Below, piece after piece: positions 1,744-62,064 of a DNA stretch of 64,000 nucleotides; positions within the stretch are counted from its first letter, which is position 1; every line of letters starts with the position of its first letter. This DNA comes from a virus. Position numbers and translations under genes: made by a program. Under the pieces are notes generated by a model that did no database searches, was not told where the DNA came from, and saw only the letters and a list, made by a program, of their open reading frames with translations. The stretch lies in IMG/VR virus record IMGVR_UViG_3300043446_004155, positions 18,625 to 82,624 of that record. One strand, given 5' to 3'.

Positions 1744-1772
1744 AGCGTAGCATGCCTCAACTGAACGCTCAA
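1744..1772 (-). promoter_or_regulatory. Putative sigma70-type promoter for the intron HEG
   Basis: TTGAGC-N17-TACGCT with extended TG, 14 nt before ATG 1729. Confidence 0.45.
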
Positions 1773-1996
1773 CGTTGTCACCCCACCGAGCAATCGATGG
1801 GTGCAAACCGGATGAATTCAGGGAAGCCCTAACGTTAAGACGAGGGTAATCCTGAGCCAAGCCAATCAAGCGTGATTGGAAGGTGCAGAGACTACTGGGT
1901 GTAACACGACCTTGTTACGTAATACCAGATTTAGCGTCCGGCATCCCACAGGGATGAAGAGATAGTCCACCCCTCTAAGAAACTAGAGACCAGGAG

Positions 1997-41753: not shown

Positions 41754-41828
41754 CGGGGATTAGCTCAGTTTGGCCAGAGCGCTGCGTTTGGGACGCAGAT
41801 GCCGCAGGTTCAAATCCTGCATCTCCGA
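41754..41828 (+). tRNA. trnP: tRNA-Pro(UGG), CCA not encoded
   Basis: Cloverleaf; anticodon loop TTTGGGA; GGTTCAAATCC T arm. Confidence 0.95.
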
Positions 41829-49159: not shown

Positions 49160-49279
49160 TCAAATGGTGTTGAATTGGGATTGAAGTTTGTTGAGCACAT
49201 AGGTCAGCAGCATTCCTGCCGCTGCCCAAAGTAAATCTTTAACAACAGGAATAACAATGCCAAGGATGGATTCAAACAT
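49160..49279 (-). CDS. 39-aa membrane peptide
   Basis: MFESILGIVIPVVKDLLWAAAGMLLTYVLNKLQSQFNTI, preceded by the pseudoknot motif. Confidence 0.55.
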   Translation of the reverse strand: MFESILGIVIPVVKDLLWAAAGMLLTYVLNKLQSQFNTI

Positions 49280-49300: not shown

Positions 49301-49328
49301 TGGTCAGTTTAAAGTCATGACCAGGACC
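49301..49328 (-). promoter_or_regulatory. Leader pseudoknot motif copy
   Basis: GGUC-C-UGGUCA-U-GACU-UUAAAC-UGACCA. Confidence 0.8.
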
Positions 49329-49333
49329 ATGAA

Positions 49334-49717
49334 TCAATCGTTGGCAATACCGTTAAGACCAGCTTTGGTAATGGTTACCAAGTTACTGATGTAATCAGTA
49401 AGTGCATCAACCTTTGCACTAAGTGATTGGACTTCTGCCATTAGCTCTTCCCTGGTGGGAGTGATACCAAAGATCTCAACCGTTGCTTCTTTCAAAGCCT
49501 CCGGATTGTTGCTCTTTTGGTAACGCCGACAGTCATCATTGGTTGTGTACACAGCTTCCTGGTACAGATCCAAGATTGTTTTGAAGTCTGCATTACCAAC
49601 ACCTTCTTCTGCCATGATGTTGCAGGTGTCTAAGTACAGCTTGGCAGAAGCACGAATGTTCTTATTAAAGAACTCACTGTACTGTTCAGACGTTAAACCG
49701 TAAGTGTCAATCGACAT
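49334..49717 (-). CDS. Hypothetical protein
   Basis: ORF; start MSIDTY inferred. Confidence 0.55.
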   Translation of the reverse strand: MSIDTYGLTSEQYSEFFNKNIRASAKLYLDTCNIMAEEGVGNADFKTILDLYQEAVYTTNDDCRRYQKSNNPEALKEATVEIFGITPTREELMAEVQSLSAKVDALTDYISNLVTITKAGLNGIAND

Positions 49718-49860
49718 GAGAGTCAAGAGCATTGTGTAATGCGTCAAGCATAAAGGCTTTTTGACCTTCTTCACCAAGGGATGTCCAGTACTCCATCTCT
49801 GGATCTGTTTCATCCCAGGTGACGGTGATAGTCATGGTGCCATCCGGCTCATCAAGGCAT

Positions 49861-50091
49861 TCAATCTTGAGCTTTTCGATCCAGTTCAGATTCGACATGG
49901 CTAATGAGGACATTGATTGCGTAGTCTTCGTGGTGCATCTTAAGGTCAGCGGCTAGCTTGACAAGCTCCCAGTGGGTGTCTTCAGGGATTTCAAGGTCAT
50001 AACATTTGTCGCCAGGGATTGATGAAATGCGTGGTTGCATGGCTAGTTGACGTGCGTATTCAAGGATGTCATCAAAGATTAAATCACTCAT
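49861..50091 (-). CDS. Hypothetical protein
   Basis: Coupled ORF. Confidence 0.5.
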   Translation of the reverse strand: MSDLIFDDILEYARQLAMQPRISSIPGDKCYDLEIPEDTHWELVKLAADLKMHHEDYAINVLISHVESELDRKAQD

Positions 50092-51029
50092 TTCTTAATT
50101 GCAGACTTGAGTTGTGGTAATGAGGTGCCAGGAAATGGAGCATAACCAGCCTCCATCATATTGAAGAACAGATCCCAGGCATCGTTCTGTGTGAACACCT
50201 CCTTAGGTTTGTAGGTACGCCAATGGCTAAGCGGAGCCTGCGCACCAGATTTGGTGTGAAGCAAAACAAAGCGTCCATCACTGGTGTGATCCACAGGCGG
50301 TGCATACCACCAAGCCACACACTTATCAGGTGTGCCACTGGGGCTGGCATTCCTTACTTCCGTGCGTTTGCATAGAAGCTCCCTGTACTTGTTGAACCAA
50401 GTCAGGTGGATGCACCAGGGCTTGAATCCCTGGATCTCTTCTTTGAAAGTAGCAAGGTTACCGAGCTGACGTTGAAAGGACCCACACGAGCATGTAGGTT
50501 CGCCAAAGATGGGCCGTTGTTCAGAACTTTCATCCAGTTCAGAGTCCATATCAAGCGGCCGATCCGCAAGCCGCATTCCGTCTGGCGCAACCAAATGGCC
50601 CAGGTCGGTCTGATCAGACTGAAGAAGGGTCGTGACTTTAGCTGGGTCTGACAGATGAATGAATTTGTCAGCCCAATGCGCCTGAAGCTTGGCATTGGAA
50701 CTCAGGTGTCCGAGTGCGTGCGTGTAGTTCCAGCCCTTAAACAGTATATAAGCATTGTGATGCCATACACTAGGGCCACGATAGTTGGGGCCAAGATACG
50801 AAAAGAAATCCTTAATACGGTTAGTGTAATGCTGGAATGCCTTGCAAATTAATTCCCGGTTGTAAGTCTGCTGACTACCATCATGACGCACCACAAGGCA
50901 ATCATCACCTCGCAGATAGATCCCAGCAATGCCGGTGTCATCAAAATCCTGGTAGGCACGGCGGATGTTCGTGCGTGTGTAGATACACGCCTGCGCCGCA
51001 TTGAGTTCCGTCTGGAGTGGAGTGGACAT
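50088..51029 (-). CDS. SWIM-type Zn-finger protein
   Basis: TCSCGSF...WCIHL. Confidence 0.65.
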   Translation of the reverse strand: MSTPLQTELNAAQACIYTRTNIRRAYQDFDDTGIAGIYLRGDDCLVVRHDGSQQTYNRELICKAFQHYTNRIKDFFSYLGPNYRGPSVWHHNAYILFKGWNYTHALGHLSSNAKLQAHWADKFIHLSDPAKVTTLLQSDQTDLGHLVAPDGMRLADRPLDMDSELDESSEQRPIFGEPTCSCGSFQRQLGNLATFKEEIQGFKPWCIHLTWFNKYRELLCKRTEVRNASPSGTPDKCVAWWYAPPVDHTSDGRFVLLHTKSGAQAPLSHWRTYKPKEVFTQNDAWDLFFNMMEAGYAPFPGTSLPQLKSAIKK

Positions 51030-51059
51030 TGGGTTGAGTTGGGTTGAGTGAATGAGGAG

Positions 51060-51269
51060 TTAGACGTGCCAGAAGGAGTCGTCCTCCTGGTTCCTCTCCT
51101 TGAGCGTAGCATCATGCTTGGCCTTTTGGTAGGCGGCTTTCCCCATTCGATAGGTTCCATAAAGAACGGCTGCCCAGCAAACGGGGTTACCAAGGATAGC
51201 TGCAATTGAACCAGCGACAACTGCTGTTGCGCCTGCGGTTTTGAGAGCGGACTTTTCTTCAGGTTTCAT
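51060..51269 (-). CDS. Small hydrophobic protein
   Basis: ORF with a TM-like segment. Confidence 0.5.
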   Translation of the reverse strand: MKPEEKSALKTAGATAVVAGSIAAILGNPVCWAAVLYGTYRMGKAAYQKAKHDATLKERNQEDDSFWHV

Positions 51270-51349
51270 TGTGTGATTGTTAACACAAACGGAAAGTTTG
51301 AATGTGTTTTAAATAGATGAGTAGAATTAGTGTAACAATTTAATACACA

Positions 51350-51607
51350 ATGGACGAAATCAAGTACGTACCGTTAACCAAATTCCAGATTGAACCAACG
51401 CTTGATGATAAGTTTTGGTTAGAAAAAATCAAACGGTCAATTCAGGATTGTGATTCGGTAAGTGCCTTGAAAGAAATGGCGACCTTGCTTGCGCAGATCG
51501 CCACGAATCGTCAAGGTGTTATTCGTGGGTTGGTCCAAGACATGTTCATCTTCAACAATGTTTCAGTTGAACCTGACGGTTTGGCCAACCCAGAAATCAA
51601 ACCTTAA
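51350..51607 (+). CDS. Second NblA-like helix-loop-helix protein
   Basis: PTLDDKFWLEKIKRSIQDCDSVSALKEMATLL; own TAGAAT promoter; opposite strand to neighbours. Confidence 0.4.
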   Translation: MDEIKYVPLTKFQIEPTLDDKFWLEKIKRSIQDCDSVSALKEMATLLAQIATNRQGVIRGLVQDMFIFNNVSVEPDGLANPEIKP

Positions 51608-52620
51608 AGACCCTCGTCCTCACCAGTCATGGGGTCACGAGCAGGCAGTGCCTTGACTTCAAGTGCATCCGTGGTACGGGACACAGGAAGAATCTCAACA
51701 CCTTGCTTGATGCCATAGGCACCACCCAGCTTCTCAGCATCCTGCTTGGCATGCTGATTGATGTAATCGTTGAACATCTCCTGGAACTTCCAGGTTGATT
51801 CACGATCTTCATCGGGAATCGAGAGACGGCTCAGTGATTCAATCGCTGCATCCTGATTGCTGTAATCAGGAATCTCAAAGGATTCAATGGCGCAGATCTC
51901 TACGTTGTTTGCACCACGCATGTCATTGACAAGCACCGGGCAGAACACCGTAGTGGCATAAAACTTCTCATTGAAGCTCAGCGGAATCTCAGAGTCCAGT
52001 GCTTTTGACAGACACTTGGACATCTCCTTTTCATACATCCGAATCTTCTCAGATGCATCAGTGCCATTGAGACCCTTCAGCGTGAGCACCATGGGGATGT
52101 CATGGGCACGCTTGTTGTCCTGGGTAACGATATAGATCAGATACTTTGTACGCACACTGTACTTACGCTTGTACATCTCGCCCTTGCTGTTGGCAAGGTC
52201 GGCTGCAATCTTATCGGCTTCCCAAAGTTCTTTGACTTCAGGTGAATCAAATGTGCCAACCACCTGTCGCATTCCAGTGGTTTCTTCCACCATCAAAGGT
52301 GAACGCAGCAGAACCTGAACACGTGGCTCAGTAAAGTTCAGTCCTTCCTCGATGGAAGTATTAGGCGCCATGCCAAAGGTTTGTTTGTAGTCCCAGATGA
52401 CAGAGCCCTTGACAAAATCCGATTCAGTGGCTGTCCACTTGCAGTTGTCCAGATCAGATTTACGAACAAACCAACCGCGTGTTTTTGATTTGTTGAGGGG
52501 TTGAATGGTGACAAGGTTTTGGTAGCCAGATACAAATTCCTTGGATTGAAACATCCGGAAGGAATCAAGTCCTCGGGTTGCAAGCGCAGTGGTTTTCTTG
52601 GTGGTCATGGAAGAGGTCAT
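51604..52620 (-). CDS. Conserved replication-module protein of unknown function
   Basis: Long ORF; start 52620 inferred from the leader motif. Confidence 0.7.
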   Translation of the reverse strand: MTSSMTTKKTTALATRGLDSFRMFQSKEFVSGYQNLVTIQPLNKSKTRGWFVRKSDLDNCKWTATESDFVKGSVIWDYKQTFGMAPNTSIEEGLNFTEPRVQVLLRSPLMVEETTGMRQVVGTFDSPEVKELWEADKIAADLANSKGEMYKRKYSVRTKYLIYIVTQDNKRAHDIPMVLTLKGLNGTDASEKIRMYEKEMSKCLSKALDSEIPLSFNEKFYATTVFCPVLVNDMRGANNVEICAIESFEIPDYSNQDAAIESLSRLSIPDEDRESTWKFQEMFNDYINQHAKQDAEKLGGAYGIKQGVEILPVSRTTDALEVKALPARDPMTGEDEGL

Positions 52621-52640
52621 TGTTAGTTCGTAGTCAGGAG

Positions 52641-52668
52641 TGGACAGTTTTACGTCATGTCCAGGACG
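52641..52668 (-). promoter_or_regulatory. Leader pseudoknot motif copy
   Basis: CGUC-C-UGGACA-U-GACG-UAAAAC-UGUCCA. Confidence 0.8.
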
Positions 52669-52673
52669 TGCCA

Positions 52674-52922
52674 TCAGGTTAGTTGGTCTTGCTGCAAAGG
52701 CAAAGCAGTGACTAGATTTTCTTTACATTCAAAGTAATCTTTAGCAGCTTGGGCCATAGCGCCATAGATGTTGTCATCATGATGGCCGCAGCCACGCATG
52801 AAGTCCACCATTTGCCGCACTAATTCGTCCGTAAAAACCGCATTGAAAGTTACGGTGATACGGGTGGTTCCATCAATGTGCTGCAGAACAAACTGATCGT
52901 TGGTTGTTTGCACCTCAGTCAT
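52674..52922 (-). CDS. Hypothetical protein
   Basis: Coupled ORF. Confidence 0.55.
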   Translation of the reverse strand: MTEVQTTNDQFVLQHIDGTTRITVTFNAVFTDELVRQMVDFMRGCGHHDDNIYGAMAQAAKDYFECKENLVTALPLQQDQLT

Positions 52923-53737
52923 CAGAAGGGAGCCTCTTCAAGATCGGGTGCATTGCCGTAGTGTCCTGGCAGGTCTGGCAGTCCACCACCGGAAGCAACG
53001 TTCCAGGGGTCTTGGTTGTCTTCAGCAGTGCGGCCACCCCAGAGCGGTGCCACGTTGTCAGAACTGGCAACCACAGTTTGAGATCGGATGGTTTGTGATG
53101 CTGTATCACCGGATGCTTTTGGAGCAAGGGTCATGGATACCAGCTGGATCTTGGTGGCGTAGCGCCGCTGGTTGCTTTCTTTGTCTTGCCACGCATCAGT
53201 CACCAATCTGCCATTGATAGTCAGGCCAGTTCCTTTGCGCGTGAAGTCAACAAGCAGTTGAGCATTATTCAGTTTGTCGTTGTGTGAATTGATGGCATAG
53301 AAATTGAAGAGGTCAGCTTGATTCCGGCCAGTGTTCACAGACAGCGTCTGATTGCAAATCATCAGACCATCTGCCGTTGTCTTGAAGGCACGGGCATCGT
53401 CCTGCTGGATGTCCTTGACACAACGTCCACTAAGGATAACTGTATTTAAGATGGGGAATGCTTCTGTGACAGGAGCAATGACACCACCGTGAAGTGAATA
53501 GGTGCGTGACTCCAGATCAAAACGCAGCTTGGCGCCATGGATGTAGATCAATGCACCTTTTGGTGTACGTGCAAAACGCTCAGAGTTTTTGCCATAAACA
53601 TTGAGTTCGATTGGAGTTGCAGCTTTGTTACCTACTGGAGGCAACAAAACATTACAGCGCAGTGCAGTTGAAGTAGCCGAGGTATAAACCTCACGCGGTT
53701 CTTCAGTGGTCTGCGCACAAACAAAAGCTTGGTTCAT
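52922..53737 (-). CDS. ssb: Single-stranded DNA-binding protein (tandem OB folds)
   Basis: NTVILSGR, KGTGLTINGRL..DAWQDKE, acidic tail LEEAPF. Confidence 0.85.
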   Translation of the reverse strand: MNQAFVCAQTTEEPREVYTSATSTALRCNVLLPPVGNKAATPIELNVYGKNSERFARTPKGALIYIHGAKLRFDLESRTYSLHGGVIAPVTEAFPILNTVILSGRCVKDIQQDDARAFKTTADGLMICNQTLSVNTGRNQADLFNFYAINSHNDKLNNAQLLVDFTRKGTGLTINGRLVTDAWQDKESNQRRYATKIQLVSMTLAPKASGDTASQTIRSQTVVASSDNVAPLWGGRTAEDNQDPWNVASGGGLPDLPGHYGNAPDLEEAPF

Positions 53738-53759
53738 GATGTTCCAAAGGGTTGTGTGA

Positions 53760-53789
53760 GAGGCAGTTTAACGTCTTACCTCAAGGACG
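53760..53789 (-). promoter_or_regulatory. Leader pseudoknot motif copy upstream of ssb
   Basis: CGUC-CUU-GAGGUA-A-GACG-UUAAAC-UGCCUC. Confidence 0.75.
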
Positions 53790-54027
53790 AGACCACAACT
53801 TCACCATTTGAATCTATGGGTCGACCTTCTCGATCCCAACATTGATGACAATCAGGACACTGATAATGATGACAGCGGTCAGTGCCGAGATACTCCACGC
53901 CAAATACACGACTAAAGAACTTCGAATCGGGTGAATAATAACCCTTATCAATTGACTCTTGTGGGATATAAGAAATTACCCAGTTTGCATTACAGCTGGG
54001 ACAGTTCTCTAGCTTGGTGATGTCCAT
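53776..54027 (-). CDS. Zn-ribbon protein
   Basis: CPSC...CPDC. Confidence 0.65.
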   Translation of the reverse strand: MDITKLENCPSCNANWVISYIPQESIDKGYYSPDSKFFSRVFGVEYLGTDRCHHYQCPDCHQCWDREGRPIDSNGEVVVSSLR

Positions 54028-54031
54028 GGTG

Positions 54032-55897
54032 TTAGTGCGTTTCTGCCCATGACGAGCCTACGCGAGAGTCGCCTTCTATAAGACAACGGAACTTAAAGAA
54101 TTCCTGAGCTTGCGGGAAAGCAAGCATGGCTTGTTCTCGGATTGCTTCAGTGTGTTGAGGCTTGCATGCAATCTGAACTTCATCATGCACCATCAACAGT
54201 TGTTGCCAGTCATTGTCATACTCCAAACCAAGATTGTTCTTGATGTTGTTTTGGATGTTGATGACAACTTGCTTCATCAAGATTGCACCAGCTGATTGCA
54301 ACAACACATTCAATCCTTTAAATGCAGAACGGCAATACAACTGACGGCGATCCAAACCAATGAGGTAACCACGTAGACCAATTGTTTTATCAATCTCCAA
54401 CTTCAATGCTTTCAATGCTGGTACACCACGCATGAAACCATCGATAGCATCACGGCCAAGCATGCGGAGTTCATCTTCATCTTTCAAGTTGGGATCAATG
54501 ATTGAACCAGCCTTGACAGATCCACATCCATAGAGCATGCCGTAGAGCAAACGCTTGCTGATGTCCCTGGTCTCTACACCAAATTGTTTTTGGTTGTAGG
54601 TATGGATGTCAATGGATTCATCAGTTACCAGACGAGCGTATTCTCCGTCATCCCAGATTGCCAAGTATCCAGCAAGGCAACGTAACTCAAGTGCTTTAGC
54701 GTCAATACCAATGAGATCCCACCCGTCAGGAGGAGTGAACAAACTTCGACACTCCTTTCCATAGGGGGAGTAACCTGCTGGGACCTGACCCATATTTGGA
54801 TTGCGGTGTGAACAGCGCCCAGTAATGCAACCGTTAGTAATAACGTCGCCGTGGATACGACCAGTGTCATTGTTGTACAGCTTGATCCAAGAGTTGTTGC
54901 CACTAGCAATTTGACCAAGACGCTTTTTGACCAACATGTATTCAGTCAGAGGTTTGGCTTCTGGATAAGGCAGTTGTTCTAGTACCTCATCATTAACAAT
55001 TGGATTTCCTTTCTCAGTAAACTTCTCTGGTTTCCATCCGTACTTGCTGCCAAGTCGATCAACAATCTGCTCACGAGATCCTGGATTGAACTCTTCGTAG
55101 CTGACTTTGGTGAAAGGTTGTCCTTTGACATAACCACGTTTAACGTTGTTGACCTTTGGTACAAACACCTGTTCGTGTTTGATAGGTGGAAAAATTTGTT
55201 TTAGCTGTGCCTCAAGTTCTGTTTCTTTTGCTCGCAGCACATCCACCAAATCAAGAGCAGCATCCAAATCGAAAGGAACACCTGATCGAATTTGTTTGTT
55301 AATCGCCAAAGCAAAGTCGTGCTCCAAGAGTAGGGATGATTCCGGGTAGTTTTGCGTGGCGATGAGCTGCCAAAGATTGAAGGTAACTGCCACGTCTTGG
55401 ACGCAGTAGTCAAGCATCTCTTGGCTGTACTCCGTAAAGTCTTTGAAGTCGATCTTATGGGTGGCCAAGCGCCATCCCCAAGCCTTAAGTGATGCGGATC
55501 CACATAGGTTCTTTGGAACCTGCGGATATTGTTCCGTGTCAAGTTCATAGAGTACCTCCTTGGGCCAGATCAAACGAGTGCAGATGAGTGTGTCAATAAT
55601 GCGTGCGTTGATTTCTACATCAGGAAATAGTTTCTTTAAGACTGGGATGTCATAAAAACAAATGTTGTGGCCAATAAGAACATCAGCACGACTGAGATGC
55701 TCAAGAGCAGAGTCGATGCTGCCAGGATCAAAAGACAAAAAGTTCCCACTGTGGATGTCATAGAGGACAATGCAGTGAACTTTGGAAGCTTTGTCATAAA
55801 GTCCATCCGTCTCAATGTCAAAGACGTACCAAGTTTCACTTTCTGAACTGGGCTTCATCTCGAACCTGGAGTTCTTCACTGGCAAGGCTGGTGTCAT
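54032..55897 (-). CDS. polA: DNA polymerase family A (T7-like) with 3'-5' exonuclease
   Basis: FDIETDGL, GHNI..YD, YCVQDV, TGRCSH, DAKALELR, SKRLLYGMLYG, VHDE. Confidence 0.96.
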   Translation of the reverse strand: MTPALPVKNSRFEMKPSSESETWYVFDIETDGLYDKASKVHCIVLYDIHSGNFLSFDPGSIDSALEHLSRADVLIGHNICFYDIPVLKKLFPDVEINARIIDTLICTRLIWPKEVLYELDTEQYPQVPKNLCGSASLKAWGWRLATHKIDFKDFTEYSQEMLDYCVQDVAVTFNLWQLIATQNYPESSLLLEHDFALAINKQIRSGVPFDLDAALDLVDVLRAKETELEAQLKQIFPPIKHEQVFVPKVNNVKRGYVKGQPFTKVSYEEFNPGSREQIVDRLGSKYGWKPEKFTEKGNPIVNDEVLEQLPYPEAKPLTEYMLVKKRLGQIASGNNSWIKLYNNDTGRIHGDVITNGCITGRCSHRNPNMGQVPAGYSPYGKECRSLFTPPDGWDLIGIDAKALELRCLAGYLAIWDDGEYARLVTDESIDIHTYNQKQFGVETRDISKRLLYGMLYGCGSVKAGSIIDPNLKDEDELRMLGRDAIDGFMRGVPALKALKLEIDKTIGLRGYLIGLDRRQLYCRSAFKGLNVLLQSAGAILMKQVVINIQNNIKNNLGLEYDNDWQQLLMVHDEVQIACKPQHTEAIREQAMLAFPQAQEFFKFRCLIEGDSRVGSSWAETH

Positions 55898-56069
55898 TTT
55901 TGTTAATCCACGTCAAGATCTGTTGTGCCCCAGCGCGATATGGATGGGAAAAGATCTTGCTCAGAGCTACTTCTGAATCTAGCGGAATTAACTGAAAAGA
56001 ATTAGAGGAGGCACAGGCGGTAATAGCAAATGGCATGCCGTCCTTCCATGTAGCAATGACGTAAGACAT
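55836..56069 (-). CDS. Hypothetical protein
   Basis: ORF. Confidence 0.5.
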   Translation of the reverse strand: MSYVIATWKDGMPFAITACASSNSFQLIPLDSEVALSKIFSHPYRAGAQQILTWINKNDTSLASEELQVRDEAQFRK

Positions 56070-56124
56070 AAGAAATGAAAGACCGGACAGATGATATCCG
56101 ATCTTCCATTCGTGGCAAGTGCCT

Positions 56125-56895
56125 TCAAGTTATCTTCTGGTTTGATTTGCCGTATCCAACAAATCCCCCCTCCTTCTTACGTTGAGATATGGCTTGGCTT
56201 GCTTCGCTGCCAGCCTTCTGGGAACCATGGACCAACAGTGCAAAGTGCTTGTCGCCCAAGCAATGGCTGTCGTCATGGTCAATCTCAAGGCCAAGCTCTG
56301 CGGCCTGTTCTTCTGTGTACACAACGTGAGAAACCCGTTGGTACACATCGGGATACTTGTCAAGCAAGTAGTCAAGCGTACCACCGTGCGATGCCGTGAG
56401 ATAAAAGTTGGATGGGATCATGTCCCGCAGGTTGTACCACATCCCAAGGGACTTGGTGTAGGCATAGAACTTTTGTTCGGGTCTGCCTTGAGCAACCATC
56501 ATCCAAGCCTTCATGTAGTTCTCAGTCCAGAAATCACCAGATTCATGGATACGAATCAGTTTCTTGGGTGGGTGCATCAACAGTGAAAGGTCAATCAGAT
56601 CACGCAACAGCATGGCCTGGTTCCCATTCATGTGAATGGTTTCACGCAGCAAATCCCAGTTGTGCCAGCGTGCTTCTCGTACGTTAGGCCGTACCTCTGA
56701 CATAGCAGCAAAGCAACGAAAGTCCCGTTCTGCTGTGACGCCTGTGTACTGAGGCAGATCAGTGATGGCACCAGTGGTGCGATCAGCAAAGGTCTTGCAC
56801 ACACCGGCGTGTGGGCAGGAATAGCCAGCGGGCAGGCTAAAGATCAAGCGGTTGCTGAGCTTGCCATTGCCCTTGGAAAACTTGAGTAGTTTCAT
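56125..56895 (-). CDS. Phage GP88-like protein
   Basis: GNGKL..FSLPAGYSCP..C...CFA...IRIHESGDF..FYAYTKS. Confidence 0.75.
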   Translation of the reverse strand: MKLLKFSKGNGKLSNRLIFSLPAGYSCPHAGVCKTFADRTTGAITDLPQYTGVTAERDFRCFAAMSEVRPNVREARWHNWDLLRETIHMNGNQAMLLRDLIDLSLLMHPPKKLIRIHESGDFWTENYMKAWMMVAQGRPEQKFYAYTKSLGMWYNLRDMIPSNFYLTASHGGTLDYLLDKYPDVYQRVSHVVYTEEQAAELGLEIDHDDSHCLGDKHFALLVHGSQKAGSEASQAISQRKKEGGFVGYGKSNQKIT

Positions 56896-56915
56896 GGTTG
56901 AGTTGAGTTGTGGGG

Positions 56916-56943
56916 TAAGCAGTTTAACGTCATGCTTAGGACG
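56916..56943 (-). promoter_or_regulatory. Leader pseudoknot motif copy
   Basis: CGUC-C-UAAGCA-U-GACG-UUAAAC-UGCUUA. Confidence 0.8.
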
Positions 56944-56957
56944 AAATTTAATTGTTA

Positions 56958-57347
56958 TTAGTTGCGCATGTAATACTCTTTTTGTATATTAAGGGGCACA
57001 CCGGCGTCATCAAAATCTTCAGGGTGTATTCCCTGGACAGTTAATTCATCTTCTTCGTCAACTCCTGGGATAACCAACCCAGTACCAATAGCATCAAGCA
57101 GTGACGAATCAAGGGCCAAATCCCTTAACTTATATGCCAAAAGAGCAACCTCTCTTGCACCTGCCATTTGCAAATCGTTTTCTTTGGATCCATACATGAG
57201 AAACAAACCAGCTGCTTGGTAATACAATGTTTCATTCTCCTCAGAATTTGGAGACATTGGATTTGCTTTAGCCAAAAGATCTCTGGCTTGTTGCAAAGCG
57301 TCTGCACGGGTAACACCCTCTTTGCGTTGAAAGAATGTGGCACTCAT
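56958..57347 (-). CDS. Hypothetical protein
   Basis: ORF. Confidence 0.55.
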   Translation of the reverse strand: MSATFFQRKEGVTRADALQQARDLLAKANPMSPNSEENETLYYQAAGLFLMYGSKENDLQMAGAREVALLAYKLRDLALDSSLLDAIGTGLVIPGVDEEDELTVQGIHPEDFDDAGVPLNIQKEYYMRN

Positions 57348-57372
57348 TGTGTTGAATGATTAGTTTTATTTA

Positions 57373-57400
57373 TGGGTGAGTTTAAGGACATCCCAGGTCC
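57373..57400 (-). promoter_or_regulatory. Leader pseudoknot motif copy (variant)
   Basis: GGAC-C-UGGGA-U-GUCC-UUAAAC-UCACCCA. Confidence 0.65.
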
Positions 57401-57569
57401 ATAATGGTATGGGGTGTAGAAGAGCAGCGTCAACCCCGAGGGAATCAGAGTTTCTGCTGCTTCCTCTGGTTGGTAACTGAATGACCTTGCGGCTTGATCA
57501 CCGTGAGGTCACACCCTCATATGTTACGGCACGAACGACATCAGATACATCAATCGTCATATAGTTTCC

Positions 57570-57583
57570 GTATCAATAAATAC
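57570..57583 (+). promoter_or_regulatory. NtcA-type box GTA-N8-TAC overlapping the predicted TSS
   Basis: GTATCAATAAATAC just downstream of -10 TATAGT (57560-65). Confidence 0.55.
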
Positions 57584-57590
57584 AGAACCC

Positions 57591-57743
57591 ATGACGTTAA
57601 CGTATCGTGGTTGCAAATACAACCAAGAGGAGCAGGCACAGAAAGACAGAGCCTGGTGGAACTTGGCCCACCGTCCCTGGCTTTGCCTGACGTACCGTAA
57701 CATCTGCTACTTTCCTTTTGTTACTGGAGGTCAAATCAAATGA
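57591..57743 (+). CDS. DUF4278-family micro-protein (50 aa)
   Basis: MTLTYRGCKY...LTYRNICY, two LxYRG-type motifs. Confidence 0.75.
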   Translation: MTLTYRGCKYNQEEQAQKDRAWWNLAHRPWLCLTYRNICYFPFVTGGQIK

Positions 57744-57856
57744 ACAAAGCACTGATCGTCTACCTGGTGGACAAGCGGAAAAAGCAAGTACGCAAAAATG
57801 TGGAGTCCAAGCATGCCGTCACTGCATTAAAAAAACAAAGCGCCGCGACCTTCTGA
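57740..57856 (+). CDS. 38-aa basic micro-protein coupled to DUF4278
   Basis: GGAGG SD and ATGA overlap; MNKALIVYLVDKRKKQVRK... Confidence 0.6.
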   Translation: MNKALIVYLVDKRKKQVRKNVESKHAVTALKKQSAATF

Positions 57857-57875
57857 TCGCCACTCTTTGAGTTCA

Positions 57876-58514
57876 TCAGTCTTCTGCAAAGGCTGCTTCT
57901 CCAATGATGGGGAATTCTTTGCAGAAGATTCTTTTGATTTCTCTGGCAATTTGTTGGTGCTCGAGTTGGGTTCCATTGGAGCAGCGGAGATCAAGATAGT
58001 GGATCCACGACCTGAGTGTACCGTTCATGAACAGACGGGTCTGTGTCGATAATGGCAGAATGGAGCGAGCACATTCCTTAGCAATACCATTGCTTACCAT
58101 CTCGCGATACAAATGTTCTGCGTTTTCATACAATTCACTGATGCGTCGATAATAATTACCAACAAGATCAGGAGATAAGTCATCAATACTGTTTTGCCTG
58201 TTTTTCTGATCTTGTCTACGTAAATGCGGAATAACAGCTGAGCCCAGTTCATTTGTGTCTGCATAACGCTGACTAAATTCCTGGAATGAGAATGACCGAT
58301 GACGAAGAATCTGTGGTGAGATTGCACGCGTCGTTTCAATCTCCACGCACATCCCTGCCATCTCAAATGGACTCCAGTGTTTGTGCTTGATCAGATACTG
58401 CAACAACCGTGGAGCAGTATCCATGTTGTCTTGGTTCTTGGGTGCAGAAACTCTTGCCATCTTGACAATGAGTTCTTCTGCGTTGGGTGTAACCCAGGTC
58501 AAGTTAACATGCAT
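57876..58514 (-). CDS. thyX: FAD-dependent thymidylate synthase
   Basis: HWSPFEM, QILRHRSFSFQEFSQRY, AKECAR, TQLEH. Confidence 0.96.
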   Translation of the reverse strand: MHVNLTWVTPNAEELIVKMARVSAPKNQDNMDTAPRLLQYLIKHKHWSPFEMAGMCVEIETTRAISPQILRHRSFSFQEFSQRYADTNELGSAVIPHLRRQDQKNRQNSIDDLSPDLVGNYYRRISELYENAEHLYREMVSNGIAKECARSILPLSTQTRLFMNGTLRSWIHYLDLRCSNGTQLEHQQIAREIKRIFCKEFPIIGEAAFAED

Positions 58515-58517
58515 GAG

Positions 58518-58820
58518 TTACTCCACCTCAAATCCATAGCCTTCAGATTGTAGCCGTTGAAGTTGATCAACAGGACAGATCCTCATCTGTGCATGTTCGG
58601 TTGGAGTTTGGAGATGATCCCATCTGATCATCAAAAACTTTTGCTTGGCACCTGATTTATTTGGCTTGAGTTTGATGCCAACAACAGTGCCATAGCGCTG
58701 GGACCTGTACTGTTGAACACGCTCTTTGGTTTCATTGCGTACAGCAAAGATGCCATGAGCTTTAGGACGTTCTGCTACGCGATCACCAATCACGTAATCG
58801 TATTGACGTTTGGTAGTCAT
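58518..58820 (-). CDS. Hypothetical SH3-like protein
   Basis: IGDRV...GTVVG...IRWD. Confidence 0.55.
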   Translation of the reverse strand: MTTKRQYDYVIGDRVAERPKAHGIFAVRNETKERVQQYRSQRYGTVVGIKLKPNKSGAKQKFLMIRWDHLQTPTEHAQMRICPVDQLQRLQSEGYGFEVE

Positions 58821-59221
58821 TTGGATTTCCAGAGTTGAAAGTGATTGCAGTCGTACGACTCAGCAGTGTCGTACTCAGGAAAGTCAAAGGCGCAGTAACA
58901 ACCATCAACGTTGTGCTGGCAATCACTGCATTTGTTAAGTGCTCTGAATTCAGATGGACTCACCCCAGAATGGGGTGGAACCACCCCGGATGTGAGTGGT
59001 TGATTTGTCATGAGCTTGTGGAGCTGCTCAACAAGATAGAGGTTGCGCTTGGCTTCTTCAAAGAAATCTGCTGATACTTCATGGGTTGTAACCCTGTAGC
59101 TACAGCAGTCGCATTTCTTGCGGCGCCTTGTTGATAGACCAGTCTTCCTGGATTCAATAACCCTGAGTCCAGGTTGATTGCATTGTGGACAGTCAGGAAG
59201 GATTGCCTTCTGAAACGCCAT
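58817..59221 (-). CDS. NrdR-like N-terminal Zn-ribbon protein
   Basis: CPQC...RVIESR...TRRRKKC..C.YRVTTHE; no ATP cone. Confidence 0.7.
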   Translation of the reverse strand: MAFQKAILPDCPQCNQPGLRVIESRKTGLSTRRRKKCDCCSYRVTTHEVSADFFEEAKRNLYLVEQLHKLMTNQPLTSGVVPPHSGVSPSEFRALNKCSDCQHNVDGCYCAFDFPEYDTAESYDCNHFQLWKSK

Positions 59222-59522
59222 TGCTTTCTTGAATGTTCAGTGAATCAAGTAGATCAGTCGTTTGCTCTGGTCCGATCAAACTAAATGCATCAACAATCAA
59301 TTGAACATTGGGCACCTCTTTGTAATGTGTGTTGAGGAATAGTTCGGCATACTCAAAATCATCAACTGATCTGGTTAATTTCAACATGATGTCTGACGGC
59401 ATCTCATCAACAATGCGTTGAACAATTGCTGTACGCACTTGATCCCATGCATGATCAGGGATTGCATCAGCAATAAGTTGAGTAATGTCAGTTGTTGATT
59501 CAGGTTGAAGTGGTGTGATCAT
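59193..59522 (-). CDS. Hypothetical protein
   Basis: ORF; start inferred. Confidence 0.5.
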   Translation of the reverse strand: MITPLQPESTTDITQLIADAIPDHAWDQVRTAIVQRIVDEMPSDIMLKLTRSVDDFEYAELFLNTHYKEVPNVQLIVDAFSLIGPEQTTDLLDSLNIQESNGVSEGNPS

Positions 59523-59552
59523 GAAGAAAAGACCCCTGTCAAAGCAGGGGCC
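59523..59552 (-). terminator. Intrinsic terminator
   Basis: GGCCCCTG...CAGGGGTC followed by TTTTCTT. Confidence 0.65.
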
Positions 59553-59570
59553 AAACATTCCGCATGAATC

Positions 59571-59933
59571 TTAGGCAGGTTCAGCCTGTGTGTCCAGGAC
59601 CTGGTCCATTAATCCTGACTCTTTGAGTCGATCCAACATGCCGCACATGATGGTGGCATGGGCATGGGTCTGTTCCATGAACAGCTTTGCCCGCTCTGCC
59701 GACATGGTATGGATACGGCCGGAGGGTTCCACATAACGCCAGCTGCCATCAGGCTGGGGATCACCCTGGAGGGCAAGACGTTCTGAGTTGTGTACGTACC
59801 GTAGTTCGAGGTTGTGATAGTCCTTAAGACCGTCAGCCGCTGTCCAGGTTGCTCCAAGGTTGTAACGCTGATCGTCATCAGTGTATGCGTGGAACTCAGG
59901 AATGAGATGTTTGAATGCAGCAAAGATTTGCAT
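59571..59933 (-). CDS. Hypothetical protein
   Basis: ORF with a G-poor leader. Confidence 0.6.
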   Translation of the reverse strand: MQIFAAFKHLIPEFHAYTDDDQRYNLGATWTAADGLKDYHNLELRYVHNSERLALQGDPQPDGSWRYVEPSGRIHTMSAERAKLFMEQTHAHATIMCGMLDRLKESGLMDQVLDTQAEPA

Positions 59934-59953
59934 GACTTGAATTGAGTTTGGGT

Positions 59954-60029
59954 TGGTAGCCGACCCCGGATTCGAACCGGGACTTGAGCGATTTTAAGTC
60001 GCTTGCCTCTGCCGTTGGGCTAGTCGGCC
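59954..60029 (-). tRNA. trnL: tRNA-Leu(UAA), intronless, short variable loop, CCA encoded
   Basis: GGCCGAC/GTCGGCT acceptor stem; AGCGA-CTTAAAA-TCGCT anticodon arm; GGTTCGAATCC. Confidence 0.92.
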
Positions 60030-60238
60030 TCACTTGGACTTACGCTTACGTCAATTGACGCATGCTGCCAAGTGTGATCTTGAGGCAGGACTTCCATTCC
60101 GTAAGTCCAGCTATCGTAGTCATCCTCATTACGAGGATCTTCATCGATCAAGATGTACTGTGGTGAGTTGTCATGAATGTACTCACCAATGTTAGCCATG
60201 GCCATGGCGAGTAGTTGATCATCGGTGTAATCGGTCAT
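60020..60238 (-). CDS. Acidic hypothetical protein whose stop lies inside the tRNA
   Basis: ORF. Confidence 0.55.
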   Translation of the reverse strand: MTDYTDDQLLAMAMANIGEYIHDNSPQYILIDEDPRNEDDYDSWTYGMEVLPQDHTWQHASIDVSVSPSEAD

Positions 60239-60289
60239 GGGTAGAAACCAGCCCTAGTATCGAGGCTAAGGCTGGTAAACCGTGCGGGC

Positions 60290-62014
60290 TCAGGCAGATT
60301 GTAGCTGCTTCTCCCGTTGTTGCAAGACCTCACGGAAGGCTTCCGTATAAGCCTCACGTTGGTCTTCAGTGAGCCGCTGGTTAGCGACACCAGCGATTTG
60401 TTTGACGGACATCAGGCCCATGTCAACGACCAGCTGGATGGTGAATGTGGGCTTACCATCAATCATGCATAGCACGATGAAGTGCTTACGCTTCTTGATG
60501 TCATCGGCATAGTGGGATGCAGAGCCGACGCAGTTACGTACGGCCTGGCCCCACATAGCCAACTGATGTGTGTCAACAGGCTGGAAGAACGACCAGGTCT
60601 CACCATTGCGTGTAACCCTGATTGGTTCAGGGAATAGATCTTGACGCAATGATTCGTTTGGATTCTGAATCTTCCAGGACTCAGCTTGCACATAGTCATG
60701 GAACTCATTGATGCGCCACCGTTTGGGTGGTGTGAGTTCATTGCCATGGTCAAGGATACGGATTGCCATGGAGAATGTGTCATTTAGTTCATAGAATCCA
60801 ATACGTGCATAACCAACTTCTGAGTCAGGACGAAGTAAATCTTGTGATTCAAGATACTTACGCAGCATTGTGAACATCGATGCAACTGGCATGTGTTCAC
60901 GTAACCAACTAACAAATGCATTTGAGCTGGTGCTGATGCTGCTTGTACGTACTTGACTCAGCCTGATGTAACGGAGTTCTTTGTAATAGGTTTGGTAGTA
61001 ATCAAGTGGGCAGTCAGGCCATATCTTGTTAATCCAGTCAATTGAATCAATGACATGGACAAAGGTTTTAAAGCCTTGAGTAATTGGCTTGCGCTGAGTA
61101 TTACCTGGGTCACTATATGCAAGTGTGCAGCGATCAAGCTCTGCTTGTAACAGCTTCTTAATTGCTGACTTGGAAATGATGTGACTGATTCTTTCCAATA
61201 CGCAAAACGTTGATGACGGGAAGTTAGGGTTCTTATTGAATTCAATTGTTGCATTAAGTAAGTTATCAACAGTTAGACCTTGCTTTAGGTCAAAACACTT
61301 TGCCATCATCGGAGGAAGGTCGGCTGCATCAAAAATGTTCTTGCAGCGCATACGATCAAACAATCCACGGGAGTCAGACCATGTAGGCATGTCTTCCCGT
61401 AGGCTTGCTTCGTATGGACGGATGCAATGCTCAATGATCTCGCGTCCTTTCTGGCAGTAAAGGTTAAAGGCTTGCCACTGGTAGGCACGCCAGCCACTGC
61501 CTTCACTTGATTCAATGTCACCCTTGGTGATGTTCATTGAGTAAGTAAAGGTCTGGACGCCACGAGCACCTTCGTGCTCGATGCACTTATCTTTGCTGGT
61601 CCAGATGTGGTGTGGTGCAGTCTTGGCAGCAGCCGCTGTGTTCTTGAATGCGTAGGCGTGGCCGTACACATACTGATCAGCTTCCTTCTTTGGAGGAAGC
61701 CATGCTGCATACCACACCTGTTCATAGTGATACAGGATGGCAATAACTTTGAGGCGAGCCTGCGGAGTTGCTACGTCCACAGGCGTGGTAAATACTCTGT
61801 AACGATCTGGCGCAGACTGCTGATTGATGTGATCAATCGCAGCTTGCTGATCTGATTCACGCACCACGTTATGTGGGATGAGGTGCGGAATGTTACCGAG
61901 TGGGTACTTAGCTTTCTTGGTTGATGTGGTCTTAGCCTGCTTAGCCAACACCTTTAGTGTTGGGTCATAAGCCAAGAGTTCGGTTTGCAGGTTGGAGGGA
62001 AGTTGGAATTGCAT
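60290..62014 (-). CDS. PcfJ-domain protein
   Basis: EFHD...LAMWGQAVRNCVGS...FTIQL...QIAGVANQ. Confidence 0.75.
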   Translation of the reverse strand: MQFQLPSNLQTELLAYDPTLKVLAKQAKTTSTKKAKYPLGNIPHLIPHNVVRESDQQAAIDHINQQSAPDRYRVFTTPVDVATPQARLKVIAILYHYEQVWYAAWLPPKKEADQYVYGHAYAFKNTAAAAKTAPHHIWTSKDKCIEHEGARGVQTFTYSMNITKGDIESSEGSGWRAYQWQAFNLYCQKGREIIEHCIRPYEASLREDMPTWSDSRGLFDRMRCKNIFDAADLPPMMAKCFDLKQGLTVDNLLNATIEFNKNPNFPSSTFCVLERISHIISKSAIKKLLQAELDRCTLAYSDPGNTQRKPITQGFKTFVHVIDSIDWINKIWPDCPLDYYQTYYKELRYIRLSQVRTSSISTSSNAFVSWLREHMPVASMFTMLRKYLESQDLLRPDSEVGYARIGFYELNDTFSMAIRILDHGNELTPPKRWRINEFHDYVQAESWKIQNPNESLRQDLFPEPIRVTRNGETWSFFQPVDTHQLAMWGQAVRNCVGSASHYADDIKKRKHFIVLCMIDGKPTFTIQLVVDMGLMSVKQIAGVANQRLTEDQREAYTEAFREVLQQREKQLQSA

Positions 62015-62036
62015 TGATTTGAGTGAGTAAATAGAA

Positions 62037-62064
62037 TGGGCAGTTTAACGTCATGCCCAGGACG
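62037..62064 (-). promoter_or_regulatory. Leader pseudoknot motif copy
   Basis: CGUC-C-UGGGCA-U-GACG-UUAAAC-UGCCCA. Confidence 0.8.

Follow-up and report, generated by a model that had tools for sequence, protein, structure and literature searches.

Coremin, an RNA of plant and fungal RNA viruses (GUCCGAAGACGUUAAACUAC), is an experimentally validated Xrn1-resistant element. It stalls the enzyme without the help of a protein and does not cleave, loops of 6–8 nt still stall Xrn1, and a second hairpin, hp2, is required directly downstream. In eukaryotic extracts, coremin also halts ribosomes that are scanning and promotes -1 frameshifting. Xrn1 is not stalled by ordinary frameshift pseudoknots of comparable size; consequently, the fold alone is no guarantee of resistance. 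In T-even phages, the unstructured leader of the SSB gene, gene 32, is preceded by a compact H-type pseudoknot whose L1 is 1 nt long; it occurs in this mRNA only and serves to nucleate gp32 binding. Chloroplast mRNA 5' ends are defined by PPR-protein caps that block RNase J, in a decay system derived from a cyanobacterium (PMC3799425). Flaviviral xrRNAs are treated alongside RNase J1 in another study (PMC5760640).

Here, we describe a 28-base knotted RNA fold in the genome of a lake cyanophage (IMG/VR record IMGVR_UViG_3300043446_004155), where six copies, all on the minus strand, lie close ahead of replication genes. The window, i.e. the whole stretch of DNA analysed, comprises 64,000 nt (positions 18,625 to 82,624 of that record). 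All six minus-strand copies reported in a preliminary description of this DNA are present, and the stem variants that it listed are correct. The copies and the genes behind them are as follows:

62037–62064, minus strand: pseudoknot copy 1, S1 CGUC/GACG, L1 C, S2 UGGGCA/UGCCCA, L2 U, L3 UUAAAC
60290–62014, minus strand: gene after copy 1, 574 aa, PcfJ-like C-terminus (PF14284)
57373–57400, minus strand: pseudoknot copy 2, S1 GGAC/GUCC (doubly compensated), irregular S2 UGGG(A)/(U-CA)CCCA, L3 UUAAAC
56958–57347, minus strand: gene after copy 2, 129 aa, no family match
56916–56943, minus strand: pseudoknot copy 3, S1 CGUC/GACG, S2 UAAGCA/UGCUUA
56125–56895, minus strand: gene after copy 3, 256 aa, GP88 family (PF17338)
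53760–53789, minus strand: pseudoknot copy 4 (30 nt), S1 CGUC/GACG, L1 CUU (3 nt), S2 GAGGUA/UGCCUC, L2 A
52922–53737, minus strand: gene after copy 4, 271-aa SSB (PF00436, phrog_44)
52641–52668, minus strand: pseudoknot copy 5, S1 CGUC/GACG, S2 UGGACA/UGUCCA, L3 UAAAAC
51604–52620, minus strand: gene after copy 5, 338 aa, DUF5895 (PF19247)
49301–49328, minus strand: pseudoknot copy 6, S1 GGUC/GACU (with G.U), S2 UGGUCA/UGACCA
49160–49279, minus strand: ORF after copy 6, 39 aa, hydrophobic

Four of the six copies (62064-62037, 56943-56916, 52668-52641 and 49328-49301) share a canonical layout: S1 of 4 bp, C, S2 of 6 bp, U, S1', U(U/A)AAAC and S2'. The other two deviate from it only in loop or arm length, the irregular S2 of copy 2 consisting of 4 bp and a bulged fifth pair. 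Scanning the entire 82.6-kb genome with a generic pseudoknot search recovered all four canonical copies, and all its remaining A-rich-loop matches are without the U(U/A)AAAC loop. The nested folding energy of the knots is modest (-3.3 to -7.7 kcal/mol). Copies 1, 5 and 6 start exactly 5 nt past a TGA stop, and the distances to the next ATG in copies 1 to 6 are 22 (ATG at 62014), 25, 20, 22, 20 and 21 nt, both as given in the preliminary description; its mostly G-poor, SD-less linkers likewise hold for the six copies. In copy 4, the TAA of an upstream 83-aa ORF is located inside the knot, and a sigma70-like TTGACG-18-TACCAT ends 3 nt upstream of copy 2. The GP88-family gene heads a block holding DNA polymerase A (54032-55897), and the 39-aa ORF is kept as ‘MFE...’ in relatives and in S-EIV1.

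A search for further copies with a sequence-only HMM detected approximately 214 of them, each on the coding strand, among 54 related S-EIV1-like contigs; every confirmed copy in the related loci (L120-L188, L066) is both on the coding strand and at a gene boundary. Among 132 distinct copies, 92.8% of cells are paired, compared with 80.4% in shuffles and at most 49% in slid controls, and 153 cells are doubly compensated against 41.5 expected, a number reached in none of 500 shuffles. S1 is paired in 99.6% of cells (CG 104, GC 14, UA 9, UG 3), whereas the inner pairs of S2 alternate among GC, AU, UA and GU. At non-terminal pairs, G.U occurs 48 times and A.C nine times; the structure is therefore that of the sense-strand RNA. 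Thus, an H-type pseudoknot is conserved as RNA structure to a degree exceeding chance, which strengthens the initial view that RNA and not DNA is under conservation. In this lineage, the most frequent spacer between the upstream stop and the motif is exactly 5 nt (79 of the 201 copies for which an upstream ORF can be identified), and only two copies have a shorter one (2 and 4 nt), apart from 12 copies with the stop codon inside the knot; the copy-4-type sequence is found in 13 copies. The ATG most often follows the motif at 19–22 nt (151 of 214 copies).

The knot was initially thought not to belong to a described family. This holds for Rfam, which gave no match for it when searched as suggested, but its core is that of a published viral RNA motif. 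Allowing for a 4-nt insert in the loop, coremin equals the phage consensus at 17 of 20 positions. Both have a first hairpin of 3–4 bp, (C)GUC/GAC(G), with a C-G closing pair, C as the first loop nucleotide and the spacer U(U/A)AAACU, and both occur in tandem copies; the loop ends in A-U in the shared core and in A plus a non-C base in most phage copies. The positions at which coremin is sensitive to mutation (loop C5, the C-G closing pair, A15-A17, C18 and U19) are invariant in the phages, and the natural coremin variant U14A corresponds to the phage UAAAAC form. Judged from its sequence, the phage knot matches the coremin core and appears to be of the same structural kind as this exoribonuclease-resistant RNA. 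We found no paper that ties coremin to phages.

The phage form differs from coremin in its 8-nt loop, in an S2 of 5–6 Watson–Crick bp formed with the sequence right after the spacer, in a U at the second loop nucleotide, where the YGAD/YGNNAD rule has G, and in a paired G in place of coremin A20. It has no downstream hp2, and the linkers after the cyanophage copies, which are poor in G (0–8%), cannot form this hairpin. Moreover, the phage element occupies 5' leaders and intercistronic gaps of DNA bacteriophages, where its resistance is predicted, whereas coremin is located in 3' UTRs of eukaryotic RNA viruses. The xrRNA-WCC variants (selected Hit1 and Hit2, and Sanxia picorna-like virus 5, abbreviated SPlV5; PMC10321173) likewise join the hp1 loop to the spacer in a canonical antiparallel pseudoknot, pair loop 6/7 with spacer 20/19 in the register of phage C10-G24 and A11-U23, and have an unchangeable single-nucleotide L1; however, their S2 has 3 bp instead of 5–6, their L1 is G instead of C, and SPlV5 retains hp2. 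With the xrRNAs of flaviviruses and of tombus- and poleroviruses, the knot shares the proposed function of a protein-free pseudoknot blocking 5'-3' exonucleases directionally, but neither sequence nor size: these RNAs, which form ring-type pseudoknots, are of approximately 45–70 nt and contain either a three-way junction or a long stem-loop. The PPR caps (PMC3799425) are also intercistronic barriers that lie a few tens of nucleotides ahead of a start codon, but there the barrier is a bound protein and not an RNA fold.

The knot is not specific to cyanophages. Intact copies were found in phages or prophages of Firmicutes, Actinobacteria, other cyanobacteria and Rhodobacterales, in a crAss-like phage and in a microvirus, with the same loop nucleotides in S. 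aureus siphoviruses, Enterococcus, Finegoldia and clostridial prophages, mycobacteriophage Labelle, Nostoc NMeng1, roseophage SIO1, Paracoccus ParMal1, crAss-like cr7_1 and a microvirus. S1 is freely compensated across these unrelated phages (CGAC/GUCG, GCAC/GUGU, UCUC/GAGA). All non-cyanophage copies with same-strand annotation lie on the coding strand at gene boundaries, except for a Vibrio phage copy, which is antisense to annotated genes. In Firmicutes phages, the knot is located between the minor-head gene and the highly expressed scaffold and major-capsid genes. Some copies are followed by tRNA genes instead of ORFs, and in NMeng1 and Labelle the knot adjoins tRNA or tRNA-like genes. A strict 20-nt pattern, searched in 185,579 species genomes, occurs in 17 Bacillota genomes and in no Pseudomonadota. 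RNase J scored above the family cut-off in four of five motif-bearing MAGs tested. Copies are also borne by the crAss-like phage and a Bacteroidetes MAG; in the latter the RNase J model gave below-cut-off matches only, and in the B. thetaiotaomicron control no match at E <= 1e-10.

The main rival, although we consider it unlikely, is that the knot acts on translation and not on decay, by docking on the 30S platform or as a standby site for SD-less cistrons, or else as an insulator against post-termination or scanning ribosomes of the upstream cistron, allowing each cistron to be initiated independently. In this lineage, the start is sharply peaked at 19–22 nt from the knot behind G-poor, SD-less linkers, the upstream stop is pinned at a distance of at least 5 nt, the geometry of a structure at the ribosome mRNA entrance, and coremin itself acts on ribosomes in eukaryotic extracts. 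However, in the copies of Firmicutes, Saccharibacteria and Paracoccus and in those of S. aureus phages, a normal SD is present and the start codon lies anywhere from 12 to ~130 nt away. In this phage, further early genes that carry no knot are preceded by the same kind of CA-rich leader lacking an SD, so the knot is not the replacement for the SD. The copies before tRNA genes do not fit this role either.

It is less probable still that the knot is an RNA processing signal, a conserved endonuclease target or a minimal self-cleaving element punctuating polycistronic mRNAs in the manner of tRNAs or small ribozymes. Its position at gene boundaries, the NMeng1 and Labelle copies next to tRNA or tRNA-like genes, a tRNA in the early module of the window and a RAGATH-1 hammerhead ribozyme that one prophage carries in the gene array of the motif, ~620 nt further downstream, are consistent with such a role. 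Against it, 28 nt is far below the size of any known self-cleaving class, no Rfam ribozyme family matches even at E <= 10, and the closest relative, coremin, stalls and does not cleave.

A DNA-level signal, whether a promoter or an inverted repeat bound by a protein, with TAAACU as the -10 box, seems very improbable. TAAACT agrees with TAnnnT, BPROM-based annotation puts a promoter over the motif in S. aureus phages B122 and B166, and the motif comes immediately after a terminator-like hairpin and T-run in prophages of Enterococcus and Ruminococcus. However, both stems covary within one genome, and G.U is tolerated five times more often than A.C, which is not expected of a duplex-DNA site. No -35 or other box is conserved upstream of the motif, sigma70-like sites are not enriched (11 found, 19 expected), and half of the copies lie 5 nt past a coding stop, placing coding sequence at the would-be -35. 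Neither a T7-type RNA polymerase nor a sigma-70 region 2 was found in the complete genome, the RNA polymerase control being uninformative.

We give equally little credence to the initially suggested SSB-sensing translational regulon, an autoregulatory or ssDNA-sensing operator in which the knot would nucleate protein binding over the unstructured leader. The topology resembles that of gene 32, one of the six copies precedes ssb, and the ssb site is kept in S-EIV1. However, the sequence is unrelated to gene 32, and the other five copies stand before genes other than ssb. The loop nucleotides recur unchanged in phages of several bacterial phyla: siphoviruses, podoviruses, a microvirus and a crAss-like phage, whose proteomes are unrelated and which have no gp32-like system. 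There, the knot lies before capsid, primase or tRNA genes, whereas a protein partner specific to one lineage should co-vary with its site. In Firmicutes phages, moreover, the start codon is 12 to ~130 nt away and has an ordinary SD sequence. Coremin, matched by sequence, works without protein.

Among the three functions proposed at the outset, the 5'-3' exonuclease block is favoured by the coremin core, and the SSB regulon is not supported. The copies in the crAss-like phage and the Bacteroidetes MAG, with RNase J matches below cut-off in that MAG and none at E <= 1e-10 in the B. thetaiotaomicron control, and the antisense Vibrio copy speak against a roadblock; so do the missing hp2, the U at the second loop position, the modest folding energy and the passage of ribosomes in 12 of 201 copies. 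Bacterial RNase J1 is reportedly also blocked in vitro by flaviviral xrRNAs. The match to the coremin core, together with the occurrence in unrelated phages, suggests that the knot probably shields the message behind it. We put about even confidence in the knot being a protein-free roadblock to 5'-to-3' mRNA decay, by RNase J where the host has one, that stabilizes the downstream cistron; both the resistance and the identity of the nuclease are proposed by analogy.

In this roadblock reading, the knot would be transcribed within polycistronic early/replication mRNAs and fold independently of proteins, as suggested by the same loop nucleotides in unrelated phages, into a directional mechanical obstacle at which a 5' to 3' enzyme would halt. 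In cyanobacteria, Firmicutes and Actinobacteria, RNase J would play this part; in other hosts it might fall to 5'-end-tethered RNase E. The spacing rules would suit a knot that ribosomes need not melt: the upstream stop is almost never less than 5 nt away, and the start codon, usually 19–22 nt downstream, would be positioned just outside the footprint of the initiating 30S subunit. Elongating ribosomes can pass the knot, since an upstream ORF sometimes ends inside it. The cistron behind the knot, with its ~20-nt unstructured leader, would then persist as a stable, translatable message.

Reading of the minus strand confirmed all six pseudoknots of the window at the positions first noticed, as follows.

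5' end at 62064, minus strand: canonical copy
5' end at 57400, minus strand: copy with first stem (S1) GGAC/GUCC and an irregular second stem (S2)
5' end at 56943, minus strand: canonical copy
5' end at 53789, minus strand: copy with a first loop of 3 nt and A at the junction
5' end at 52668, minus strand: canonical copy
5' end at 49328, minus strand: canonical copy

The four canonical copies have the layout S1 (4 bp), C, S2 (6 bp), U, S1', U(U/A)AAAC, S2', and were recovered when the entire genome was scanned for generic pseudoknots, a scan in which all the other A-rich-loop matches were devoid of the U(U/A)AAAC loop. The spacing of 20-25 nt to the start codon also held, the next ATG lying 22, 25, 20, 22, 20 and 21 nt from the motif end across the six copies, as did the TGA stop situated 5 nt before the motif start in three of them. 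The downstream genes are, in order, those of a PcfJ-like protein of 574 aa, a 129-aa protein, a GP88-family protein (the first gene of a block with DNA polymerase A), SSB and a DUF5895 protein, and lastly an ORF of 39 aa. The phage genome, of which the window is a part, is complete (82,624 bp, with terminal repeats), and Synechococcus phage S-EIV1 is its closest named relative.

Copy 57400 is the only one that follows a divergently transcribed region. A sigma70-like sequence, TTGACG-18-TACCAT (57404-57433, minus strand), ends 3 nt 5' of it; a primary transcript starting from this site would carry the knot right at its 5' end. The window also carries a group I intron in the structural-gene region (Rfam RF00028, 90 bits, 1748-1989, plus strand) and two tRNA genes, at 41754-41828 (plus strand) and 59957-60029 (minus strand). 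The latter lies inside the early/replication module, between the first and second motif copies, and is probably co-transcribed with it.

The motif was followed in 69 related viral contigs, fetched through a DNA polymerase match. The HMM used to search them took only sequence into account, which kept pairing out of the choice of copies. About 214 copies were found, 3-8 per locus and all on the coding strand. One contig, L139 (IMGVR_UViG_3300032238_001058), is 82,624 bp long, exactly like the genome that contains the window, yet the identity of its polymerase match is only 73% and the coordinates of the match differ. In a MAFFT alignment of 132 distinct copies, 92.8% of cells were compatible with pseudoknot pairing vs 80.4% in shuffles, and 153 cells were doubly compensated where 41.5 were expected, a count reached by none of 500 shuffles. 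This count is conservative, because about 13 copies with a loop shorter by 1 nt were misregistered by MAFFT, yet pair in the shifted register. Sliding the partner by 1-3 columns lowered pairing to 16-49%. S1 was paired in 99.6% of cells, its outer pair being CG, GC, UA, UG or GU, and the inner pairs of S2 alternate among GC, AU, UA and GU; orthologous sites carry differing compensated stems from genome to genome. A genuine copy in locus L066 is a variant with a first loop (L1) of 2 nt. Among non-terminal pairs, G.U outnumbered A.C by 48 to 9, an asymmetry unexpected for duplex DNA and indicative of sense-strand RNA. The proposal of the preliminary description that RNA structure is what is conserved is thus borne out by both the compensation count and this asymmetry. 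Nested folding, which cannot model a pseudoknot, recovered the S2 hairpin only, with modest energy and unremarkable z-scores that consequently carry little weight; the case for structure rests on covariation, not on thermodynamics.

No conserved box was found upstream of the motif in this cyanophage lineage, where a stop codon at -7 to -5 is the sole signal. Between the upstream stop and the motif, a gap of exactly 5 nt is the commonest (79 of 201 copies), and shorter gaps occur in only two of the 201, setting aside a class of 12 copies whose upstream stop lies inside the knot. On the other side, the ATG follows the motif by 19-22 nt in 151 of 214 copies. From established ribosome geometry we infer that the 5-nt minimum corresponds to the distance at which the mRNA entrance of a terminating ribosome just abuts a downstream structure, and 19-22 nt to the point where a 30S subunit engaged in initiation ends on its upstream side. 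The two spacings are consistent with a knot that ribosomes can melt only at a cost and that is packed as tightly as its function allows. The linkers that follow the knot (positions 29-47) are C/A/U-rich, with 0-8% G. Across the whole genome, minus-strand early genes have C/A-rich, G-poor leaders lacking an SD sequence and with repeated AACUCA-like words, also where there is no knot; the leaders of plus-strand late genes are rich in purines and contain SD-like AGGAG or AAGGA. Since knot-free early genes share these CA-rich leaders, the knot is not a replacement for the SD sequence.

Rfam 15 covariance models, including preQ1, pistol and other xrRNAs, gave no match at the six sites at the gathering score or at E <= 10, nor at the motif in 17 bacterial loci. 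The motif had not been recognised as a described family. This stands as far as Rfam is concerned, but the core matches a published element: a full-text literature search with the invariant 10-mer led to papers on coremin, an Xrn1-resistant RNA present in BNYVV and in numerous further RNA viruses of eukaryotes, in which a 5'-3' exoribonuclease stalls about 1 nt before the first hairpin. Coremin, GUCCGAAGACGUUAAACUAC, consists of a hairpin of 3-4 bp, (C)GUC/GAC(G), with a YGAD loop, followed by the conserved spacer UUAAACUAC and a second hairpin (hp2). The phage consensus coincides with it at 17 of 20 positions if four extra loop bases are allowed. The S1 stem CGUC/GACG is that of BNYVV in 82 of 108 canonical copies. 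Coremin requires C or U at loop base 5 and a closing pair C-G or U-A, G-C not being tolerated; similarly, the phage closing pair (columns 6-17) is C-G in 131 of 132 copies, and the first loop base, C5 of the 28-nt motif, is C in 100% of 137 canonical contexts (column C7 is invariant in alignment A2). Within the coremin spacer UUAAACUAC, the essential bases are A15-A17, C18, U19 and A20; changes are tolerated at U13/U14, and U14A is a natural variant. The corresponding phage bases are U17 (U in 89%), U18 (U in 78%, A in 21%) and A19-A21 (A in 100%), followed by C22 and U23, which match the essential C18 and U19 and are at least 90% conserved in the unselected alignment. The equivalent of A20 is G in 93% and is paired with C/U10, as in the Watson-Crick variants of coremin (xrRNA-WCC).

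A pseudoknot between loop and spacer was hypothesised by the authors of coremin, and in the later-selected Watson-Crick variants loop bases 6/7 pair with spacer bases 20/19 (PMC10321173). The phage pairs C10-G24 and A11-U23 lie in the same register and follow the xrRNA-WCC rule, by which loop nt 6-8 pair with spacer nt 20-18: A11-U23 is A-U in 120 of 132 copies, and C/U10-G24 is CG in 77 and UG in 34. Most phage copies also share the 1-nt L1 of xrRNA-WCC, and they extend this type of pairing by 3-4 covarying pairs. The phage form also differs from coremin. Unlike the YGAD loop, the phage loop has 8 nt and is mostly base-paired; coremin with loops of 6-8 nt retains Xrn1 stalling. Its second position is U (90%) or C (9%) instead of the G of YGAD/YGNNAD. 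The loop end, which in coremin is A followed by a base other than C, falls in between: A11 is A in 100%, and the final base is mostly U (72%), with C in 16% and A in 10%. The second hairpin, required for Xrn1 stalling, is absent; with 0-8% G at positions 29-47 no conserved hairpin is possible after the knot, and its place is taken by the 3' arm of S2, a stem of 5-6 bp that differs from coremin. We regard the fold and its kinship to coremin as very probable. To judge from the literature searched, no paper ties coremin or any xrRNA to bacteriophages.

The motif extends well beyond cyanophages. In a set of 185,579 species genomes, a fixed consensus pattern of 20 bases found 23 loci, against about one calculated for chance, and nearly all of them have a complementary S2. 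They comprise 17 in Bacillota, one MAG each of Saccharibacteria, Anaerolineales and Bacteroidetes, two lake contigs of the present lineage and one Bradymonadales MAG; this strict pattern detected no proteobacterial genome in the set. In the Bradymonadales MAG (L190:1793-1820, plus strand) the motif is flanked by two copies of a direct repeat of about 37 nt and looks like a CRISPR spacer acquired from a motif-bearing phage. In Enterococcus, Finegoldia and clostridial prophages it separates the gene of the minor head protein from those of the scaffold and the major head protein. A BLAST search of 50,697 phage records revealed intergenic copies in about 85 S. aureus siphoviruses, in phages of Lactobacillus, Streptococcus, Bacillus, Moorella, Corynebacterium, Arthrobacter, Mycobacterium, Nostoc and Microcystis, and in S-EIV1, roseophage SIO1, Paracoccus phage ParMal1, the crAss-like phage cr7_1 and a microvirus. 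The cultured relative S-EIV1 has at least seven copies, before orthologous genes. Intact knots with compensated S1 variants occur in S. aureus phages (CGAC/GUCG), SIO1 (GCAC/GUGU) and a Vibrio phage (UCUC/GAGA). Matches in E. coli phage ST32 and in Yersinia, Salmonella, Citrobacter and Acinetobacter phages were treated as chance, being intragenic or partial; that in ST32 has no S1.

Several of these loci deserve mention in their own right. Phage cr7_1 carries two diverged tandem knots upstream of its DNA primase gene (L216:~1455-1525, plus strand); tandem motifs are also known for coremin in plant viruses. The motif ends at most 4 nt before an annotated tRNA-like pseudogene in Nostoc phage NMeng1 (L214:2501-2606, plus strand) and lies about 185 nt upstream of tRNA-Gln in Mycobacterium phage Labelle (L213:2502-2787). 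In an Eubacteriales prophage, a RAGATH-1 hammerhead ribozyme (L208:4534-4620, plus strand, 68 bits) is found about 620 nt downstream of the motif; small ribozymes and the knot occupy similar intergenic niches. In S. aureus phages B122 (L221:1206-1242) and B166 a deposited BPROM 'promoter' covers the motif and is probably a mis-annotated RNA element. The UCUC/GAGA knot of Vibrio phage D456 and about 26 near-identical phages (L215:299-326, plus strand) is antisense to annotated genes, in a host group that presumably lacks RNase J; either the annotation or the link to RNase J is incomplete.

That the loop nucleotides are conserved in phages of several phyla makes a protein partner specific to one lineage less likely, and favours a self-contained fold or a universal partner. 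This conservation, together with the coremin match, makes a block to mRNA decay the simplest reading: the knot would act as a directional mechanical obstacle to 5'-3' decay and the cistron behind it would be stabilised. We consider the chances of this function to be about even. A profile search placed RNase J above the family cut-off in four of five motif-bearing MAGs; among the controls it matched in Synechococcus, Bacillus, Corynebacterium and Lactococcus, and not in E. coli or B. thetaiotaomicron. The RNase J model had no match in the phage itself, the control at E <= 1e-3 being blurred by related metallo-beta-lactamase folds. The decay block has three weak points: the missing hp2, which coremin needs for Xrn1 resistance; the occurrence of the knot in a crAss-like phage and in a Bacteroidetes MAG, the likely hosts of which lack RNase J; and the class of copies with the end of the upstream ORF inside the knot. 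The more specific proposal, which we put forward tentatively and think rather less probable, is that the knot is a true exoribonuclease-resistant RNA that halts RNase J. It would then be the first xrRNA class in prokaryotic viruses, common through descent or convergence to RNA viruses of eukaryotes and to DNA phages from several phyla, and its covariation would settle the pseudoknot hypothesised for coremin.

The main rival is a role directed at the ribosome. Scanning ribosomes, too, are blocked by coremin, which stimulates -1 frameshifting as well, and the spacings of the phage knot would suit a structure adjoining ribosomes. We judge a ribosome-directed role to be unlikely. Frameshift or readthrough fusions were rejected: the upstream stop is an ordinary one with no slippery site, and stop-to-ATG distances of 56, 57 and 58 nt cover all three frames. 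An IRES-like start right after the knot was rejected because linkers of 20, 21, 22 and 25 nt give no common frame. Among the functions suggested in the preliminary description, the exonuclease block is the one favoured, through the coremin match, and the SSB-sensing regulon is not supported: only one of the six copies precedes ssb, which does not suit an operator of the T4 gene 32 type, and unrelated phages carry the motif before capsid, primase, tRNA and other genes. The covariation and the G.U asymmetry point to RNA and speak against a sigma-70 promoter; apart from the stop codon there is no conserved upstream information, and promoter-like sites are not enriched. The complete genome gave no match to sigma factor PF04542 or to phage RNA polymerase PF00940, although the PF00940 control matched nowhere, so that this blank is weak. 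Mimicry of a tRNA acceptor or RNase P substrate does not suit the topology (the 5' strand enters the coaxial stack at one end and the 3' strand leaves it at the other, and there is no RCCA), and preQ1-I, pistol, hammerhead, HDV-like, ToxI and CRISPR-repeat mimicry were discarded for misfit with their architectures and for want of a model match.

The element is a coremin-like variant in an unexpected group of viruses, with a putative function. Hundreds of natural covariations would provide the structural model that coremin has been missing. If the knot blocks 5'-3' decay, 28 nt would suffice for protein-free control of the stability of single cistrons inside long phage operons; no RNA of this kind has been described in bacteria or their viruses in the literature searched. 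With such an activity it would also give engineers of cyanobacteria and Gram-positive bacteria a tiny element for stabilising or insulating mRNAs. The motif, mis-annotated as a promoter in some current records, is one of the most widespread RNA motifs that phage genomes carry without annotation, and would be so also with a function at the ribosome. The decay block, if true, would link the RNA-stability strategies of bacteriophages with those of eukaryotic RNA viruses.
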